In this document: positions 11,802-30,776 of the stretch, in pieces | Layout of the letters: each line of letters begins with the position of its first letter | Numbering within the stretch: the first letter of the stretch is position 1 | Origin: a virus | Direction: 5' to 3' (one strand) | DNA: 64,000 nucleotides | IMG/VR virus record: IMGVR_UViG_3300010352_000628 | Location: 688-64,687 of that record | Position numbers and translations under genes: made by a program | Notes under the pieces: model-generated | Told to the model about the DNA's origin: nothing | Seen by the model: only the letters and a program-made list of their open reading frames with translations | Database searches by the model: none

Positions 11802-11902
11802 GAGATTTAAGCCAGCGCCTCCACGCAGGTATTTATGCCATCTTATATTAAGTACAAATCGGAACGTTCACAATTCATACCCAGTGAAAGTTGGGCCTCC
11901 AG

Positions 11903-12691
11903 ATGAAGTCAGACGGCCCCCTCCCTTGGCTCCGGCTCTACGTCGAGATCCTTGATGACTCAAAAGTGCAGTTACTACCTGACAAATTGTTCAAGTTTTG
12001 GATCAACTGCCTTTGCATCGCTCGGAAGTACGATGGTTGGCTACCAGATCCGGGGTCAATCGCATTCATTCTAAGGCTCAAAAAAAAGGTAGTAGTATCG
12101 CAACTCGCCGGGCTTGCTAATGCTGGCCTACTAGACTCAGAAGAAAAGGGTTACGCCCCTCACTCCTGGGCTCGGCGACAGTACAAATCCGACAATTCCA
12201 CAGAGCGCGTGAATCGTTTCAGGGACGCGAGGAGAAACGTTACATGCAACGTTGCACGAAACGTTGGGTGTAACGGTGATGAAACGGCCCTCAGAATACA
12301 GAGTACAGAAGCAGAAGAAACACCCCCCTCCCCCTCACGGGGATCGGGTGGCGGTGGGGCGCTTTTCCGCAAGAAACAGGACGAGTGGTTTGATCGGTTC
12401 TATTTGGCTTACTGGAGGAAAGTTGGCAAGGACGCAGCCCTCGCTAAGTTTCGTCTGAAAATTAGGGATGAGGCGACATTTAATTCCGTCATGGCGGCAG
12501 TTAAGAAGCAGACTCCAGAAATGATGGTCCAGATGGGAGTTGATAAAAAAAAGGTCCCTCACCCCGCCACTTGGATAAACCAGGGAAGGTGGAAGGATGA
12601 GGACGACCAAGAGGCGGCAGCCTCTTCCGGCCCCGCCTACCGCCCAGCGGACGGCTACCTCGAAGACCTGTTCAGGAACCCCAATGAGTGA
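11903..12691 (+). CDS. phage replication initiator / replisome organizer
   Basis: WLRLYVEILDDSKVQLL N-terminus; FYLAYWRKVGK..A...PHPATWINQGRW C-terminus; directly upstream of dnaB. Confidence 0.85.
   Translation: MKSDGPLPWLRLYVEILDDSKVQLLPDKLFKFWINCLCIARKYDGWLPDPGSIAFILRLKKKVVVSQLAGLANAGLLDSEEKGYAPHSWARRQYKSDNSTERVNRFRDARRNVTCNVARNVGCNGDETALRIQSTEAEETPPSPSRGSGGGGALFRKKQDEWFDRFYLAYWRKVGKDAALAKFRLKIRDEATFNSVMAAVKKQTPEMMVQMGVDKKKVPHPATWINQGRWKDEDDQEAAASSGPAYRPADGYLEDLFRNPNE
12234..12287 (+). repeat. iteron-like ~12-bp repeats (candidate replication origin)
   Basis: GAAACGTTACAT GCAACGTTGCAC GAAACGTTGGGT GTAACGGTGAT GAAACGG inside the initiator gene. Confidence 0.5.
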
Positions 12692-13994
12692 ACTCGTCAC
12701 ACTCTTGGACCGGGGTGGGCTGCCGGAGGCAGCGATGGCCGAGCGGGCGCTGATCGGGGCGGTACTCGCGCAGGGCGGGTGCTACCCGTTCGTCCGGGAC
12801 ATCGTGCGGCCTGGAGACTTCAGCCTGACGAAACACCAATCGATCTGGAAGACGGTCGGGGAGTTGCACGGGGCCGGTACGCCCGTCGATGCGGTCAACC
12901 TAGCGACGGCCCTCCATCGCCGGGGCGAACTGGAAAGCATCGGCGGGTTGACCTACCTGCTCGAACTCTCGGATCAGGCTATCCCGCTGGCGAACGTCGA
13001 GAGTTACGCCGGGGCGATCTCTGAGACGGCAGTACGGCGTCGGCTGATCGTGGCGGCGCAGTCGATTTGCGAGATGGCCGCTGGCCCGGATGACCTAACC
13101 GCCGTCATGGACAACGCGAAAGCGATGCTCTCTGAGCTCACGCCGGCCACGCCGGGCGAGTTCGCTACGCCGGGCGAGGTCGTTATGGCGTCGGGCGGGC
13201 TGGACTCGTACCTGTCGAAGTTCCGGGCGCGGGGCGTGTCCTGGCCCTGGCCCCGGCTCACTCATGTCACGGCGGGCATGTTTCCGGGCGAGTTGTCTAT
13301 CATCGCGGCGGGCACGGGGCGCGGCAAGACGGACTTCGCAATCAACACCGCCATGCACTGCGCTGAGAACGGCGGCGGGGTGGCGTTCTTCAGCCTCGAA
13401 ATGAGCCGGGAGCAGGTCATCAACCGCCTCGCCGCTCTCCGGGGTGGGTTCAACCGGGCGCTGGTGCGTCACGAACCGCAAATCTGGCACCTGGGCGTGT
13501 TGCAGCAGGGGTTTACGGACGTGTCCGACCTCCCGGTGTACGTCCGGGACTCGACAAACTGTACGGTCGCCTCGATCGAGGCCGGGGTCCGACGCCTCCA
13601 GGCGCGGCACGATATCCGGCTGGTGGTGGTGGACTACCTCCAACTCGTCACGGGGCGCGGACAGACGCGAGCCGAGCAGGTCGGCAGCGTGGCGCGGGGG
13701 CTGAAGGTGATGGCGGCGGCGCTGAAGGTTCACATCCTGGCGCCGTGTCAGTTCAGCCGCGACCACCAGAAGACCGGGGCGAAACCGCAACTACATGATT
13801 TGAGAGAGTCGGGCGATATCGAGCAGGCGGCGAACGTGGTGCTGTTCCTGAGCGGCGAGACGCGGTACGAGAGCCAGCCGTCCGAAGAGTTACCCATCGA
13901 CCTCATCATCGCCAAGCAGCGCGATGGGGCCAACAACTTCACCGTCCCAATGCTGTTCCGTGGCGACACGGGCCGATTCTCTGAGGCAACATGA
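12684..13994 (+). CDS. dnaB: replicative DNA helicase DnaB
   Basis: AERALIGA N-domain; Walker A AGTGRGKT; FSLEMS; VVDYLQL; LRESGDIEQAA; AKQRDG. Confidence 0.95.
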   Translation: MSELVTLLDRGGLPEAAMAERALIGAVLAQGGCYPFVRDIVRPGDFSLTKHQSIWKTVGELHGAGTPVDAVNLATALHRRGELESIGGLTYLLELSDQAIPLANVESYAGAISETAVRRRLIVAAQSICEMAAGPDDLTAVMDNAKAMLSELTPATPGEFATPGEVVMASGGLDSYLSKFRARGVSWPWPRLTHVTAGMFPGELSIIAAGTGRGKTDFAINTAMHCAENGGGVAFFSLEMSREQVINRLAALRGGFNRALVRHEPQIWHLGVLQQGFTDVSDLPVYVRDSTNCTVASIEAGVRRLQARHDIRLVVVDYLQLVTGRGQTRAEQVGSVARGLKVMAAALKVHILAPCQFSRDHQKTGAKPQLHDLRESGDIEQAANVVLFLSGETRYESQPSEELPIDLIIAKQRDGANNFTVPMLFRGDTGRFSEAT

Positions 13995-15036: not shown

Positions 15037-15380
15037 GCGCCTCCCCACTTCGCCCGCACCGCCGCAAGCACCTTCGCCTCCAGATTCGCCAGCACGCCCC
15101 GCGCGATCCACTGGCGGGCCTTCTCTGCCGCCTGCTCCATCTCCGGCTGGCGGCAGATCCAGTCCGGCAACCCGCCGTCGTCCGCGAGCCTGCCGCTGAT
15201 CGTCTTGATGGCCTCCTGGCTGGGCCTCCATCGTGTCTTCATGGCGTGTGCCATCCTCTCCTTGTTTTCTTGCGGCGTCCGCGCGGCGGCGATCGCCGTC
15301 TGCTGCGCGACTCGTGCTCGGCGCATGGCCGGCGTCACGGGGAATTTCTTTCGCGTGGGCAGGCCGATGCGCTCATCCAT
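15033..15380 (-). CDS. basic hypothetical protein
   Basis: coupled ORF; ARTPQENKERM resembles the MTPEQ motif. Confidence 0.55.
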   Translation of the reverse strand: MDERIGLPTRKKFPVTPAMRRARVAQQTAIAAARTPQENKERMAHAMKTRWRPSQEAIKTISGRLADDGGLPDWICRQPEMEQAAEKARQWIARGVLANLEAKVLAAVRAKWGGA

Positions 15381-15549
15381 CGCAGGTTCCCTTCAAGAGC
15401 TTCTTCTTCAACTTCGACGCCTGGCTGGCAGCGTTGGCCTTCAAGGCCCGCTCGCGCTTCTGTTGCGGGGTCATGCGGGCGTTGCCCTTGCGACCGGCGG
15501 CGGCGAAGAACGCCTTGGCCTCGGGGGACAACGGGGATTCGCCGTTCAT
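15373..15549 (-). CDS. small basic protein, MTPEQRRERA family (paralog 3; absent from the ORF track)
   Basis: translated by hand: MNGESPLSPEAKAFFAAAGRKGNARMTPQQKRERALKANAASQASKLKKKLLKGTCDG. Confidence 0.7.
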   Translation of the reverse strand: MNGESPLSPEAKAFFAAAGRKGNARMTPQQKRERALKANAASQASKLKKKLLKGTCDG

Positions 15550-15749
15550 TGGGCGGCCTCACGTTCTGCCTTCTTGCGGCGCTTCGACTCCTGGGAGGCG
15601 GCGTTGGCTTTAATGGCGCGTTCGCGGCGCTGCTCGGGGGTCATGTTGGCCGCCGTACTCTTGCCGCCGATGCGTCCGCCTATCTTGCCCCATTCGGACA
15701 AGATCCGTCTGGCGCGGGCATGGTCATCCAATTCTTTTGTGTTTTTCAC
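15546..15749 (-). CDS. small basic protein, MTPEQRRERA family (paralog 2)
   Basis: GKIGGRIGGKSTAANMTPEQRRERAIKANAASQ. Confidence 0.7.
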   Translation of the reverse strand: MKNTKELDDHARARRILSEWGKIGGRIGGKSTAANMTPEQRRERAIKANAASQESKRRKKAEREAAQ

Positions 15750-15785
15750 TTGCTTATGGCCTCAAGTTGTGTTATCTATAAATCA

Positions 15786-16176
15786 GCGTAGCCGAAAGGC
15801 AACGCCGCGTGTTTAGGGCCAGCGAGGGAAGTCCCTCCACTGGGAACGTGATCGGCGGGAGAGTCAACCCGCTGCGCGGACGATAGAACCCGGTGCCACG
15901 GCCTCTCTGGGCGCGTCAGGACCAGCCCGTACAGGGTCAAACCAAGCCAGGGACAGTGGGTATGGGGCCAGCATCCTAGATCAAGCTGGCTGCGTCGAGG
16001 CGACGACGGCTCCGTAGGGGCAGAATCGCGGGACGTGATGATGCGAGGGTTTAGCATCATTGCGTCTCGGCTCAGACTCACCATAGGGGCAGCAGGGGTA
16101 GAGAAACAAGAAAACGGCGCGACGAAACTTTTGACGGTCATCGTTTCGTTGAAGGAACCGCAACAAAATTTCGCCG
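15786..16176 (+). ncRNA. candidate large structured non-coding RNA
   Basis: ~440-bp gene-free gap with at least 7 hairpins, a GAAA tetraloop, and G-U pairs favouring the + strand. Confidence 0.5.
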
Positions 16177-16188
16177 CGCTGGTCATAG

Positions 16189-16431
16189 TTACTCCGGTTC
16201 GACTTTGGCGAGTACGGCGCGGGCCATTTTGACCTCGGCGGTCACTTCTGGGTTACACCACGACCTATCGCGTTTGACGTGGCGGATATAGCAGACCACC
16301 ATCCTCTTGAGTGCCTCTAGGAGTTCGGCGGCGTGTTGTTGCGCCAACGTGTTTGTTTCTTGTTCTATCGTCGTTACCTCTTCGGGACGCAAACCCATTC
16401 CCATCGGCAGTTCTGCCCGCGAGAGTCGCAT
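16189..16431 (-). CDS. hypothetical protein
   Basis: AAELLEALK...ARAVLAK motif common in phage early genes; start uncertain. Confidence 0.5.
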   Translation of the reverse strand: MRLSRAELPMGMGLRPEEVTTIEQETNTLAQQHAAELLEALKRMVVCYIRHVKRDRSWCNPEVTAEVKMARAVLAKVEPE

Positions 16432-16580
16432 CGGCAGACCGCGACGAGATCCTTGCAGCCCAGAGGGGGCAAGGGCTTCAAGGGTTTCAGCCCGCAGCCT
16501 GACGCGCAGGCCGGGGGCGGTGTCATCAGGAGGGCCACGGCGAGGGCCGCAGCCGGGATTGTGAGCAGAAGTGCTTTCAT
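16374..16580 (-). CDS. small secreted Cys-rich protein
   Basis: GAGGA RBS; signal peptide; 7 Cys. Confidence 0.6.
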   Translation of the reverse strand: MKALLLTIPAAALAVALLMTPPPACASGCGLKPLKPLPPLGCKDLVAVCRCDSRGQNCRWEWVCVPKR

Positions 16581-16881: not shown

Positions 16882-17118
16882 CTATTTCCCCTCGATATCG
16901 AGGGCGCAGTGATAGCAGCATCCGCCGCTCGTTACATCGTCCGGGCCGATGGGATCGCCGCACAGGGCGCACGTCTCCGCGAGATGCTTGTGTTTCTCGC
17001 AGTATTCGCCCGCGGTCGGCTCACCGTAGCAGCCCCTATAGAGGCAGCAGTCCTGCCCCAGTTCGCCCTCTCGCCGCTCCCTGGCGGCGTGTTGCGCGAT
17101 GATCTGCTTGGCGGTCAT
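16882..17118 (-). CDS. Cys-rich Zn-finger-like protein
   Basis: GGAG RBS; multiple CxxC. Confidence 0.55.
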   Translation of the reverse strand: MTAKQIIAQHAARERREGELGQDCCLYRGCYGEPTAGEYCEKHKHLAETCALCGDPIGPDDVTSGGCCYHCALDIEGK

Positions 17119-17119
17119 A

Positions 17120-17290
17120 TCACTCCCTCCCCTCTGCCTTGGCGATCGCGGCAATTATCATAGCGTGAGCCTCGTGTGCCGTGGAACATGTTGCGCCACG
17201 TTGCGCAGGGGTCTCGTTATCGCCGAAACGCATCCAACAGCGAGCCTCTTTCAGCGCCTCCAGCAGTTCCGGCGCGGCGTCTCTCACCAT
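17120..17290 (-). CDS. hypothetical protein
   Basis: AAPELLEALK...AAIAKAEG motif; start approximate. Confidence 0.5.
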   Translation of the reverse strand: MVRDAAPELLEALKEARCWMRFGDNETPAQRGATCSTAHEAHAMIIAAIAKAEGRE

Positions 17291-20390: not shown

Positions 20391-20915
20391 TTACTGGGAC
20401 AGCCGGGAGGCTTGCGTTGCGCTCTCGTATTGGCTGCTGTTCGAGTATGGCCCGCTTCCGCATACGACCCGCGTTCCCAACGCTTCGACGTGTCCGCTGC
20501 GGTTGAACGCAGTCCGGGTGACTGGGACATTGGACGCGACAGGCTTACCATGCTGCTCGGCATGGCAATACTTACAGAGGACGATCAGGTCTAAAGGCTT
20601 TTCCGCGCCTTTGTTGCGGTAGTTGAGGTGGTGGACGTTGAGGGGCGGGAGTTTAGACCCGCACTGTTCGCATTGGTACTTTGCCCGGAGTAGGGCCGCC
20701 GCTCGTGTCTCGCGCCAGTGGTCGGATTCCAGGTACTGCTGATAGGCGAGTTGGCTTGGGGTCGCTCCGCCGATTAGGGCGGTCGGTTTGCGTCGGCGTG
20801 GTGTATCTGACTGCGGTCCTGACGAGTAGAGGTTGGACCAGTCCTGGTAGCGGTTCTTCACCGATCGCAGGGTGCGACAGTTCAGTTTGATTCGAGGTCC
20901 GCCGGAAACCTTCAC
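20391..20915 (-). CDS. HNH endonuclease
   Basis: YQQYLESDHW...CEQCG...LNVHHLNY...LCKYCH. Confidence 0.85.
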   Translation of the reverse strand: MKVSGGPRIKLNCRTLRSVKNRYQDWSNLYSSGPQSDTPRRRKPTALIGGATPSQLAYQQYLESDHWRETRAAALLRAKYQCEQCGSKLPPLNVHHLNYRNKGAEKPLDLIVLCKYCHAEQHGKPVASNVPVTRTAFNRSGHVEALGTRVVCGSGPYSNSSQYESATQASRLSQ

Positions 20916-28702: not shown

Positions 28703-28914
28703 CCCCTGAAGCCGCGGCGCTGTACGAGTTCCTGAAGTACCTGGATACCGAGATCCAGCACAGATCCGGCGTCATCAGTCGCGGCAACGCGACTGACTAC
28801 GCGCATTACCGGGAGATGGTCGGCGCTATCGCCGCCTTTGAACGGGCAAAAACCGAGTTGAAGGAACTGCTCAAGAAGCAGCACTTCGACTTGCCTGAAG
28901 GAGAACCAGAGTAA
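28699..28914 (+). CDS. small conserved head-module protein
   Basis: GNATDYAHYREMVG.I; position after portal. Confidence 0.65.
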   Translation: MTPEAAALYEFLKYLDTEIQHRSGVISRGNATDYAHYREMVGAIAAFERAKTELKELLKKQHFDLPEGEPE

Positions 28915-29318
28915 TGAGCACTGCAATCTGGCCGGCCAGCGTGCCTATGCCAGCCGTCACCGAAACCATAGCCCTTTCGGCTGCGCCGGAGCCGAAGCAG
29001 CCCAAACCGACGGGATACAGGATCATTCTCCTGATCCCCAGGAAATCCGAAAAAGTCGGTTCGGTCTATCTGCCCGACCAGTCCCGCAAGACGGAAGAGG
29101 TCGCCTCGATCCTGGGCCAAGTCGTCGCGCTGGGACCGGACGCCTACAAAGACGCAAGCCGGTTCCCGACCGGCCCCTGGTGCGCCGTGGGCGACTTCGT
29201 GATGTTCCGCGCCTACAGCGGGACACGGTTCATTCGCGGTGACAATGAGTACCGCATCATCAACGACGACACGGTGGAAGCCGTGGTGTCTGATCCGAGC
29301 GAGGTGCAGCGGCCATGA
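28914..29318 (+). CDS. groES: GroES-like co-chaperonin
   Basis: PTGYRII...GSVYLP...GQVVALGPDAY...VGDFV...YSGT...YRIINDD. Confidence 0.85.
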   Translation: MSTAIWPASVPMPAVTETIALSAAPEPKQPKPTGYRIILLIPRKSEKVGSVYLPDQSRKTEEVASILGQVVALGPDAYKDASRFPTGPWCAVGDFVMFRAYSGTRFIRGDNEYRIINDDTVEAVVSDPSEVQRP

Positions 29319-30343
29319 CGACGCCCATGCCCGGAATCCCGCCGCCGGTTGACGAAGACCGCGACCTGTTCGTGGAACTGGACCAGGAAGCCGCTTCCAA
29401 GCCTGAAGTCAAGGCCGAGCCGGAACCTGAGCCGGAGCCAAAGGCCGACGCCGAAGTAGAAGTCGAGATCGTTGACGACACGCCTCCCGAAGACCGCCGC
29501 CCTCCGCGCCGCGAAACAGCCGAAGAGACGCCCCTCGAAGAGAAGGAAGCTCTCGGCAAGCGGGTCCAGCACCGCATCAGCAAGTTGAAGTTCGACGTTC
29601 ACGACATGCGCCGCCGCGCCGAGCAGGCCGAGCGGGAGCGCGATCAGGCAGCCGCCTGGGCCAAGAACGTCTACACGCAGAAACAGCAGTTGGAGCAGCA
29701 GGTAGCCGCCGGACAGAAAGTCTCCTACGACTCCACGCTGGGACGGTTGGACGCTGAGATCCTCAACACGCGGCAGAGTCTGAGGCAGGCGACCGAGTTG
29801 GGCGATGCCGACAAGATCGCCGAAGCCACCGAGAAGATGTCGATGCTCGCCGCCCAGCGGCAGAACATCGCCATGAATTTCCAGCCGCCGCCTCAACCTC
29901 AACAGCCAGCGGCACAGCAACTGGGCGAACTCCAGCCGCCTCCGCAAGTCGAACAGTATCAGGCGCAGATGGCGCAGAAGTTCCAGCGGCAGTTGCAGGA
30001 GTGGCAGGGACGCAACCCCTGGTTCGCTCAGGACAAGGAAATGACCGACTACGCTTTGGCGATGCACCACAAGGCGCTAACCGAAGACCTGATCCCCGGC
30101 TCGATCGGGTATCTCAAGTTCATCGACCAGCAAATGGTCGCAACCTTCCCCGAAAAACTGGGTCACGCCGCTCCGGCGAAACCCAAGCCTGCCCCGCAGA
30201 TCGTCGCACCCAGCGTCCGGTCGAATGGGGCTGGATCGAAAAAACTGGTTCTGCCCAAAAGCGCGGCAGAAACTGCAAAACGGCTGGGCGTGCCCCTCGC
30301 GGAGTATGCCCGGTACTACCAGGAGAACGAAGCCAATGGCTGA
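29315..30343 (+). CDS. capsid scaffolding protein (putative)
   Basis: acidic N-terminus, coiled coil, W...NPWF, AKRLGVPLAEYA C-terminus. Confidence 0.7.
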   Translation: MTTPMPGIPPPVDEDRDLFVELDQEAASKPEVKAEPEPEPEPKADAEVEVEIVDDTPPEDRRPPRRETAEETPLEEKEALGKRVQHRISKLKFDVHDMRRRAEQAERERDQAAAWAKNVYTQKQQLEQQVAAGQKVSYDSTLGRLDAEILNTRQSLRQATELGDADKIAEATEKMSMLAAQRQNIAMNFQPPPQPQQPAAQQLGELQPPPQVEQYQAQMAQKFQRQLQEWQGRNPWFAQDKEMTDYALAMHHKALTEDLIPGSIGYLKFIDQQMVATFPEKLGHAAPAKPKPAPQIVAPSVRSNGAGSKKLVLPKSAAETAKRLGVPLAEYARYYQENEANG

Positions 30344-30776
30344 CCGCACCTCAAGAGAGACAGTGACTCGCGCCGAAGCGGCGCGCCCCCGCAATTGGGA
30401 TGATGACAGTCCGCTCCCGGTCCCAACGCCGCAGCCCGGGTGGGCTTTCCGTTGGATCAGGGTCGGCTACCTGGGCAACACGGACGACGCCAACATGAAC
30501 AAGCGTTTCCGTGACGGGTGGGTGCCGTTGAAGGCATCCGAACACCCGGAACTTGCTCAGTTGGCAGACTCCCGCAAGAACACAGGGGACACCATCGAGA
30601 TCGGTGGGTTGATCCTCTGCAAGATGCCGGAAGCGGAAGTCAGAGCGCGGAACGAACATTTCGCCCGCAAGTCTGAACAGCAGGTTCAGTCGGTGAATGC
30701 CGCGCTGGCACAGGCACAGCATCCGGCCATGCCCATGACAGTCAACATGAGCAGCCGGATCGGCGGTCCAGAGTAG
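30336..30776 (+). CDS. conserved head-module protein
   Basis: FRWIR...D..N......GW.P...IGGLILCKMP. Confidence 0.7.
   Translation: MADRTSRETVTRAEAARPRNWDDDSPLPVPTPQPGWAFRWIRVGYLGNTDDANMNKRFRDGWVPLKASEHPELAQLADSRKNTGDTIEIGGLILCKMPEAEVRARNEHFARKSEQQVQSVNAALAQAQHPAMPMTVNMSSRIGGPE

Follow-up and report, generated by a model that had tools for sequence, protein, structure and literature searches.

What occupies positions 15776 to 16186 of the 64,000-nucleotide stretch of DNA from an uncultured sludge phage analyzed here (i.e., the window, which corresponds to bases 688 to 64687 of IMG/VR virus record IMGVR_UViG_3300010352_000628; 64,687 bp, 99% complete rating, 60% G+C content)? The interval lies within a leftward block of minus-strand genes (positions ~24400 to 14767) that converges with a plus-strand replication module. 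The original prediction described it as a gene-free gap that might specify a single, highly structured noncoding RNA of ~400 nt, antisense to the leftward operon. Our analyses firmly show that the interval is noncoding and conserved at the nucleotide level. Two separate things appear to lie beneath a chance open reading frame (ORF), namely, an intrinsic terminator of the upstream leftward genes (16100 to 16179, minus strand) and a core of ~310 nt (15785 to 16095). We tentatively read the core as a separately transcribed, plus-strand structured RNA, which is the leading explanation and quite possible but falls short of probable; we infer which strand would be used, where the RNA would begin and end, and how it would act.

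Contrary to its description as gene free, the interval is filled exactly by a 136-codon minus-strand ORF (15776 to 16186; product, P0001). A GGAG sequence precedes its ATG by 6 nt, and the stop codon of the upstream 80-amino-acid (aa) gene lies 2 nt before that ATG. These features would suit a genuine, fast-evolving, disordered 136-aa protein that is translationally coupled to the 80-aa gene, as would the finding that the ORF is open in three relatives, with similar start and length. A word-indexed protein search yielded 2 matches among 19 candidates (P0002 and P0003, with 90% and 86% identity to P0001, respectively), and a profile search of 1.84 billion representatives yielded three (P0003; P0004, E = 1.8e-15; and P0005). 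The last of these matches is regarded as spurious; P0005 (Logan, 599 aa; E = 5.9e-6 against the P0001 profile) contains at least eight tandem repeats of ~49 aa and is probably translated repeat DNA that is unrelated to the element. The relatives thus number three in total (P0002 to P0004), all of them single Logan sequences, and since they can be found only as called proteins, the open ORF in all of them is an ascertainment effect. Comparisons with P0002 to P0004 were made by reading the proteins back into DNA, in which third codon positions are unseen. P0004 is the most distant of the three, at ~50% divergence.

The strongest line of evidence against P0001 as a gene, as judged from these back-translated sequences, is a conserved island that appears in a shifted frame. 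Residues 81 to 88 of P0004 (FDPVRAGP) correspond to window positions 15918 to 15941 translated in a minus-strand frame other than that of P0001, and the spacing of the P0004 islands implies net 2-nt and net 1-nt insertions or deletions (indels) on the two sides of this segment. None of 300 shuffles of P0004 produced a match of 8 residues when the other five frames were searched (the maximum was 7 residues, in 2 shuffles). Therefore, it is the DNA that is conserved and not the "protein." The substitutions point the same way. In the BLASTP alignment of P0001 with P0004 (57 identities and 64 positives among 119 positions), positions are either identical or unrelated. The mean BLOSUM62 scores of the substitutions in the three relatives are -1.08 (n = 13), -0.85 (n = 20), and -0.97 (n = 65), compared with -0.70 for random single-base nonsynonymous changes of P0001; i.e., the substitutions are apparently as radical as random ones. 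The start region varies among the relatives (a one-codon indel included), and neither the stop codon nor the C terminus of P0001 is conserved in the three of them, the tails being 13 and 2 residues longer and unrelated. Additionally, the strong terminator described below sits within codons 3 to 29 of the ORF.

The other coding tests were also negative. P0001 has a codon log-odds score of -0.127 per codon, while 11 of 13 long training genes score from +0.22 to +0.39 and the remaining two score +0.12 and -0.09. Its G+C content by codon position is flat (.56/.58/.64). A low codon score is weak evidence when taken alone, because 3 of 10 small neighbouring ORFs score +0.04 or lower (16189 to 16431, +0.039; 16374 to 16580, -0.119; 16882 to 17154, -0.05). 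P0001 belongs to no family in Pfam or PHROGs, and AlphaFold2, given the four-sequence alignment, returned a model lacking secondary structure (mean predicted local distance difference test score, 42.3; predicted template modeling score, 0.10). A conserved coding signal, which the original prediction had named as an outcome that would speak against an RNA, is thus absent in the codon, family, substitution, frame, and fold tests. We judge the ORF spurious, and it is very unlikely to be a real gene. Gene callers nevertheless read the interval as a 136- to 149-aa protein in every relative, an artifact lying over a terminator and a conserved noncoding element, and this correction should be useful for phage annotation.

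The first of the two elements beneath the ORF is firmly identified, on the basis of its sequence and predicted fold, as an intrinsic (Rho-independent) terminator of the upstream leftward genes (16100 to 16179, minus strand). It consists of an uninterrupted 15-bp stem (16179 to 16165 paired with 16131 to 16117), an inner hairpin, and a U-rich tail (16114 to 16100), with CGUUUUCUUGUUUCUCU directly after the stem and six U's among the eight nucleotides counted from 2 nt past it. The element starts 10 nt past the stop codon of the 80-aa gene (16189 to 16431), where it would end the leftward transcription that comes from upstream. Folded on the minus strand, the segment 16190 to 16095 reaches -30.7 kcal/mol (z = -3.61, with none of 200 shuffles folding as well), compared with a z of -1.46 (19 of 200 shuffles as good) for the same segment on the plus strand. 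The stem departs from Watson-Crick pairing at two places, 16122/16174 and 16128/16168, which form G-U pairs on the minus strand only. Minus-strand pairing is also kept by each change inferred in the relatives (A>G at 16122, G>A at 16173, and T>C at 16180). A consensus scan missed the terminator because its loop is longer than 8 nt. All seven hairpins of the original prediction do exist where it had placed them; the seventh (16120 to 16151) belongs to the terminator, in which it competes with the longer stem (16117 to 16131/16165 to 16179), which is better on the minus strand. The proposed single RNA of ~400 nt therefore fails over its last ~80 nt, which form this minus-strand element.

The sole terminator-like site that the consensus scan did report (16330 to 16363, plus strand) lies inside and antisense to the 80-aa gene. 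It has nine pairs, three of them G-C, followed by TGTTTCTTGT, and one such site was found where 1.5 are expected by chance. It could mark the point where a longer antisense transcript from the plus strand ends.

The second element is the core. Sequence comparison firmly establishes 15785 to 16095 as a nucleotide-conserved element in which at least two hairpins appear to be maintained by paired changes; its assignment to the plus strand is provisional and draws on fold z-scores and consensus folding. In order, the islands that the window has in common with P0004 coincide with hairpin H1 (15785 to 15805), hairpin H3 (15845 to 15862), one arm of a predicted long-range helix (15918 to 15941), hairpin H5 (15989 to 16003), the other arm of that helix together with the first copy of a twin motif (16007 to 16024), and the second copy of that motif (16079 to 16090). 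The spacers between islands differ in length by 1 to 3 nt among the relatives. The long-range helix would pair 15925 to 15938, within the 24-nt island that P0004 carries in another frame, with 16008 to 16021.

H1 (15786 to 15805) has seven of eight possible pairs and one A-A mismatch, with a loop that reads GAAA on the plus strand and UUUC on the minus strand. From the protein changes P130S and G132D, the C15792-G15799 pair of this hairpin is inferred to be T-A in P0002 and in P0003. H2 (15824 to 15837, plus; 5 bp with an AAGU loop) is not conserved in P0004. H3 (15853 to 15874, plus; 7 bp, including one pair that is G-U on the plus strand) keeps its stem in P0004 with an altered loop. H4 (15966 to 15991, plus) has 7 bp with one G-T pair and a 12-nt loop, and H5 (15993 to 16005, plus) has 5 bp. 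A pseudoknot between the H3 loop and 16075 to 16079 was also considered and ruled out, as it is not kept in P0004.

The largest hairpin, H6 (16029 to 16069, plus), has 16 bp (13 Watson-Crick and 3 G-U; 81% complementary) and a 9-nt loop. In P0004, compared through a protein alignment without gaps, 10 pairs stay as they are and 3 have altered but can still form (16044/16054, C-G to G-C; 16041/16057, A-T to G-C; and 16036/16062, T-G to C-G); of the others, 1 can form on the minus strand alone and 2, at the base of the stem, are lost. These counts depend on the alignment, because a nucleotide-level alignment of the degenerate back-translation reads the top of H6 differently. Compensatory pairing, which the original prediction had proposed to look for, is thus inferred at one pair of H1 and, depending on the alignment, at two pairs of H6; long-range helices of the left half are mostly lost in P0004 (see below). 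On either side of H6 stand two 12-nt copies of the twin motif, 69 nt apart. Copy 1 (CCGTAGGGGCAG, 16012 to 16023, plus) is conserved in P0004, where it is read as SAPTEP, and copy 2 (CCATAGGGGCAG, 16081 to 16092, plus) is kept up to 16092 in a metagenome contig of run X13. Within the 64-kb window, CCRTAGGGGCAG has matches with 0 mismatches only at 16012 and 16081. Sites complementary to the motif (2 or fewer mismatches) numbered 16 in the window, against 11.5 expected, which is not beyond chance.

The X13 contig is divergent, 181 nt long, and covers 16008 to 16092. It differs from the window by 12 substitutions and 5 gap positions, which are concentrated at the top of the H6 stem and in its loop, and motif copy 2 is followed in it by a purine-rich stretch like that of the window.

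From which strand, then, would the core act? On the plus strand, the segment 15785 to 16100 has a fold z of -2.15 (2 of 100 shuffles as good), compared with -0.28 (38 of 100) on the minus strand. For the whole interval, the corresponding values are -166.4 kcal/mol, z = -2.64, and 1 of 100 shuffles on the plus strand and -147.9 kcal/mol, z = -1.67, and 6 of 100 shuffles on the minus strand. RNAalifold, applied to the window together with the three pseudosequences, gave -114.8 for the plus strand and -93.5 for the minus strand. H6 contains three G-U pairs and no A-C on the plus strand, while on the minus strand it would hold three A-C mismatches. At three positions, a change on one side of a stem is compatible with pairing on the plus strand alone (15996 and 16068 in P0003 and 15870 in P0004): the 15996 C>T change in H5 gives U-G, and the 15870 C>T change in H3 is of the plus-strand G-U type if its unseen partner stays G. 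The interval also has a plus-strand skew of A over T and G over C, opposite to that of the flanking minus-strand genes.

A number of observations weigh against a plus-strand RNA. As background, 202 nonoverlapping 316-nt genome windows were folded on both strands with 20 shuffles each, and 30 of the 404 values (the lowest 7%) were as low as the plus-strand z of the core, while 32 of the 202 windows showed a strand difference as large as its own. Given this calibration, the fold of the core is suggestive and not outstanding. In strand-neutral stems of 15806 to 16100, six G-T pairs stand against three A-C pairs, an asymmetry reached by 50 of 300 shuffles. H1 gains two more pairs (C-G and G-U) on the minus strand, where its z is -2.40, compared with -1.11 on the plus strand, and the H1 change common to P0002 and P0003 may be a single event. 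Two changes in P0004 are compatible with pairing on the minus strand only (16042 and 15985, the latter turning one pair of H4 into C/A). The long-range helices 15807 to 15820/15900 to 15916 and 15838 to 15844/15889 to 15895 are mostly broken in P0004. The consensus scan found neither a promoter nor a plus-strand terminator around the core. Finally, the use of proteins read back into DNA leaves a third of the bases unseen.

These results temper several parts of the original prediction. The term "highly structured" was an overstatement in light of the background windows; the whole interval does fold better than its shuffles on the plus strand, but the core is unexceptional among the windows of its genome. 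In the stems that had been listed, the non-Watson-Crick pairs are indeed G-T on the plus strand, whereas the unbiased count of six versus three is not significant. The AT-rich, promoter-like stretch is real in composition (55% G+C versus ~65% alongside), but it contains no sigma-70 promoter on either strand according to the consensus scan. The assignment to the antisense strand agrees with the z-scores of the core, while the wobble count and some of the inferred changes give a mixed picture.

Within the background set, the lowest z-scores (20 shuffles) belong to the plus-strand windows 30337 to 30652 (-5.4), 28757 to 29072 (-4.4), and 633 to 948 (-3.9), and these windows are found inside structural genes or between them, as well as in the leftmost early region. 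Values from 20 shuffles are noisy; the window at 30337 has a z of -5.38 with 20 shuffles and of -2.95 with 100, none of which folded as well.

The minus-strand signals in H1 and in positions 16042 and 15985 of P0004 would be explained if the hairpins act on a read-through transcript of the leftward operon. H6 would then be a processing or pause hairpin past the terminator (e.g., an RNase III site) and H1 an attenuator (its 9-bp stem has AUUUAU behind it and lies 35 nt upstream of the following start codon), and the two would set how strongly the distal genes for small basic proteins (from 15749 downwards) are expressed. The adjoining terminator is itself a minus-strand feature, the neighbouring genes are all on the minus strand and need an expression route past it, and minimum free energy z-scores have low power for real leaders. 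However, the minus-strand fold of the core shows no excess of structure, H6 would have to tolerate its three A-C mismatches, the three one-sided changes at 15996, 16068, and 15870 pair on the plus strand only, and the tail of H1 has only four U's among eight nucleotides. We consider this possibility doubtful, although it deserves to be taken seriously.

A third possibility is that the element works as DNA, with the twin 12-nt direct repeats, the 16-bp inverted repeat, and the islands serving as protein-binding or single-stranded-DNA sites (e.g., a secondary origin or priming site, a recombination site, or operators). The exact or near-exact 12-mer pair around an inverted repeat, with its sole 0-mismatch sites in 64 kb, would suit such a role, the genes for a replication initiator and DnaB lie 1.8 to 4 kb away, and conservation in islands is equally what binding sites would produce. 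Yet the repeats number only two, and the changes inferred in H1 and H6 are compensatory, which indicates pairing and not base-specific protein contacts. Moreover, the origins of lambdoid phages are usually located within the initiator gene, and no integrase or partition gene was found alongside in Pfam or PHROGs. A DNA-level element is thus distinctly improbable.

Does the element need a function at all? Parts of 15500 to 16500 were found in 20 metagenome runs from 11 studies; two of these runs may be the source sample, none is listed as RNA, and four that carry the label "RNA?" are probably DNA. Contigs of four runs, X13 among them, were compared with the window. Contigs of X4 (15829 to 16239), X3 (15839 to 16239), and X10 (15781 to 15931 and 15940 to 16090) show 0 differences, while flanking contigs of the same runs differ by 5 to 19% (e.g., 14/259, 15/213, 11/118, and 21/111). 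In X4, the near-identity reaches leftward through two small protein genes (15309 to 15629, 1 difference). Because it extends into flanking genes, the near-identity appears to reflect a recently exchanged mosaic block and not selection on the element, which is a further point against the RNA. The core could accordingly be a functionless remnant, i.e., a mosaic junction or decayed moron, in which the similarity of the four loci reflects recent common descent and the nonterminator hairpins arose by chance in 62% G+C DNA. The unexceptional fold of the core, its stem content (reached by 32 of 300 shuffles), the run of the identical block into its neighbours, and the tiny size of the family all fit this view. 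What makes a remnant unlikely is that P0004, at ~50% divergence, keeps islands of 12 to 24 nt perfectly while its spacers are scrambled and changed in length, and that paired changes are inferred in H1 and H6.

A 529-nt contig of X10 joins 15581 to 15918 and skips 336 nt. It may represent a deletion variant lacking H1 to H3 or an artifact of the repeated small-protein motif; only 26 letters lie on its shorter side, and the contig was not used.

If the core is a plus-strand RNA, as we tentatively propose, it would be transcribed as a stand-alone folded RNA that converges with the terminator and starts near H1 with its GAAA loop. A few related phages keep the core as short islands, mostly hairpins, with variable spacers. 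The proposed RNA would present the two CCRUAGGGGCAG copies on either side of the 16-bp H6, and this twin display might bind a dimeric protein, either as a platform or as a decoy, or offer two alternative partners to 15925 to 15938. In its most specific form, the proposal is that of a new class of ~300-nt, free-standing plus-strand RNAs in four sludge, sediment, and groundwater phage lineages, which would act in trans through the CCRUAGGGGCAG pair, either capturing a host or phage protein dimer or switching pairings with 15925 to 15938, and would be shielded by the terminator from leftward transcription. We regard that full combination as speculative and rather unlikely to be correct in every part.

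Searches for further relatives of the element at the nucleotide and protein levels were negative. By blastn, the GenBank phage collection had no match to the interval. Searches for related loci among viral, genome, and metagenome contigs (queries P0001, A1, A2, and P0004) gave pattern matches, none of which was confirmed. Flanking queries with the 80-aa gene and DnaB gave 0 loci, and the 67-aa gene directly downstream has only three weak relatives in IMG/VR (loci L002 to L004), none of which shows similarity to the element. A pattern of the 23-nt island matched 0 stretches across genome contigs, and protein searches with shorter forms of P0001 and with the plus-strand frame found no relatives. 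The twin-motif DNA pattern matched at least 116 viral and at least 113 metagenome stretches, all of them by chance according to blastn and nhmmer.

Many unrelated contigs contain the pattern TAGGGGCA(G)…TAGGGGCAG (L005 to L120 in IMG/VR and L121 to L233 in metagenomes), with favored lengths of ~74 to 75 and 89 nt. Its matches sometimes stand in tandem, two or three of them 130 to 160 nt apart (e.g., L147, L182, L125, and L152). These features suggest that the 9-mer is part of at least one unrelated repeat or RNA family, and none of L005 to L233 resembles the window element by blastn or nhmmer.

The replication module toward which the leftward block converges includes a replication initiator (PHROG 270; 11891 to 12691, plus) and the DnaB helicase (12597 to 13994, plus). 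Directly upstream of the interval in the leftward sense lies the 80-aa gene (16189 to 16431, minus), a member of phrog_1273, whose function is unknown. Directly downstream are two paralogous small basic proteins of 67 aa (15546 to 15749, minus) and 58 aa (15373 to 15549, minus), which have in common a motif of the form MTP-QR/K-RERA-KANAASQ. A minus-strand ORF of 68 aa (16374 to 16580) shares 58 nt with the start of the 80-aa gene. Its signal-like N terminus precedes a Cys (…LLMTPPPACASGC…), and its tail is rich in Cys and Pro; judged from these features, it looks like a small lipoprotein, with no family in Pfam or PHROGs. Elsewhere in the leftward block, a 174-aa protein (20391 to 20915, minus) carries an HNH endonuclease domain (Pfam PF01844, E = 1.4e-5).

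Could the core belong to an RNA class that is already known? Rfam gave no credible match in four scans (E ≤ 1 over 3 kb, E ≤ 10 over 501 nt, gathering thresholds over 64 kb, and family RF02932 alone), and ARAGORN found 0 tRNA or tmRNA genes in 64 kb. These results bear out the statement in the original prediction that the RNA could not be assigned to tRNA, tmRNA, RNase P, or a known ribozyme, and the first three identities were rejected, RNase P included, although some short motifs might resemble its conserved regions. A plant microRNA match in the E ≤ 10 scan of 501 nt was spurious; it exposed the long inverted repeat of the terminator. Other candidates were rejected on account of the gene context: no reverse transcriptase lies nearby (retron), no small hydrophobic ORF is present on the plus strand (type I toxin-antitoxin system), and no plus-strand gene follows (riboswitch). 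RF02932 (Betaproteobacteria-1; threshold, 49.4 bits) had no match in 15740 to 16240 at E ≤ 10, and its best scores in the genome (11.8 and 10.2 bits) lie outside the interval, at a level also seen in 11 of 14 control genomes (i.e., noise). Membership in this family is therefore not shown. The name "Betaproteobacteria-1" has 0 occurrences in the main text of PMC5737381.

Compared with known systems, the terminator itself is ordinary. It resembles the intrinsic terminators of phage early operons in its G+C-based stem on the sense strand, its U-rich tail, and its position just past a stop codon, and it differs from the usual ones in its 33-nt loop with an inner hairpin. If the core is a leader on the sense strand or a DNA site, the locus would be a regulatory region of an ordinary kind within a mosaic phage genome. 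The RNase III processing hairpins of lambda sib and T7 are long and imperfect, lie between or after early genes, and act on the sense transcript; H6 fits this type under the sense-strand alternative, although it differs in its three A-C mismatches on that strand. If the core is instead a plus-strand RNA, the comparison shifts to small phage RNAs. Lambda OOP, P22 sar, and the C4 RNAs of P1 and P7 (Rfam RF01695) are phage RNAs of ~70 to 80 nt with defined targets. The core resembles them as a noncoding unit opposite or inside a temperate-type early operon, near replication genes, and differs from them in its length of ~310 nt, the lack of an Rfam match, and the absence from the window of sites complementary to the twin motif beyond chance. 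The core would then represent another uncatalogued structured RNA of ~300 nt in phage early regions, with the simple architecture of a twin motif around a hairpin. ROOL, GOLLD, and HEARO, to which the Rfam scans did not match the core, are larger and have deep covariation support; like the putative core RNA, they are structured RNAs carried by phages and prophages.

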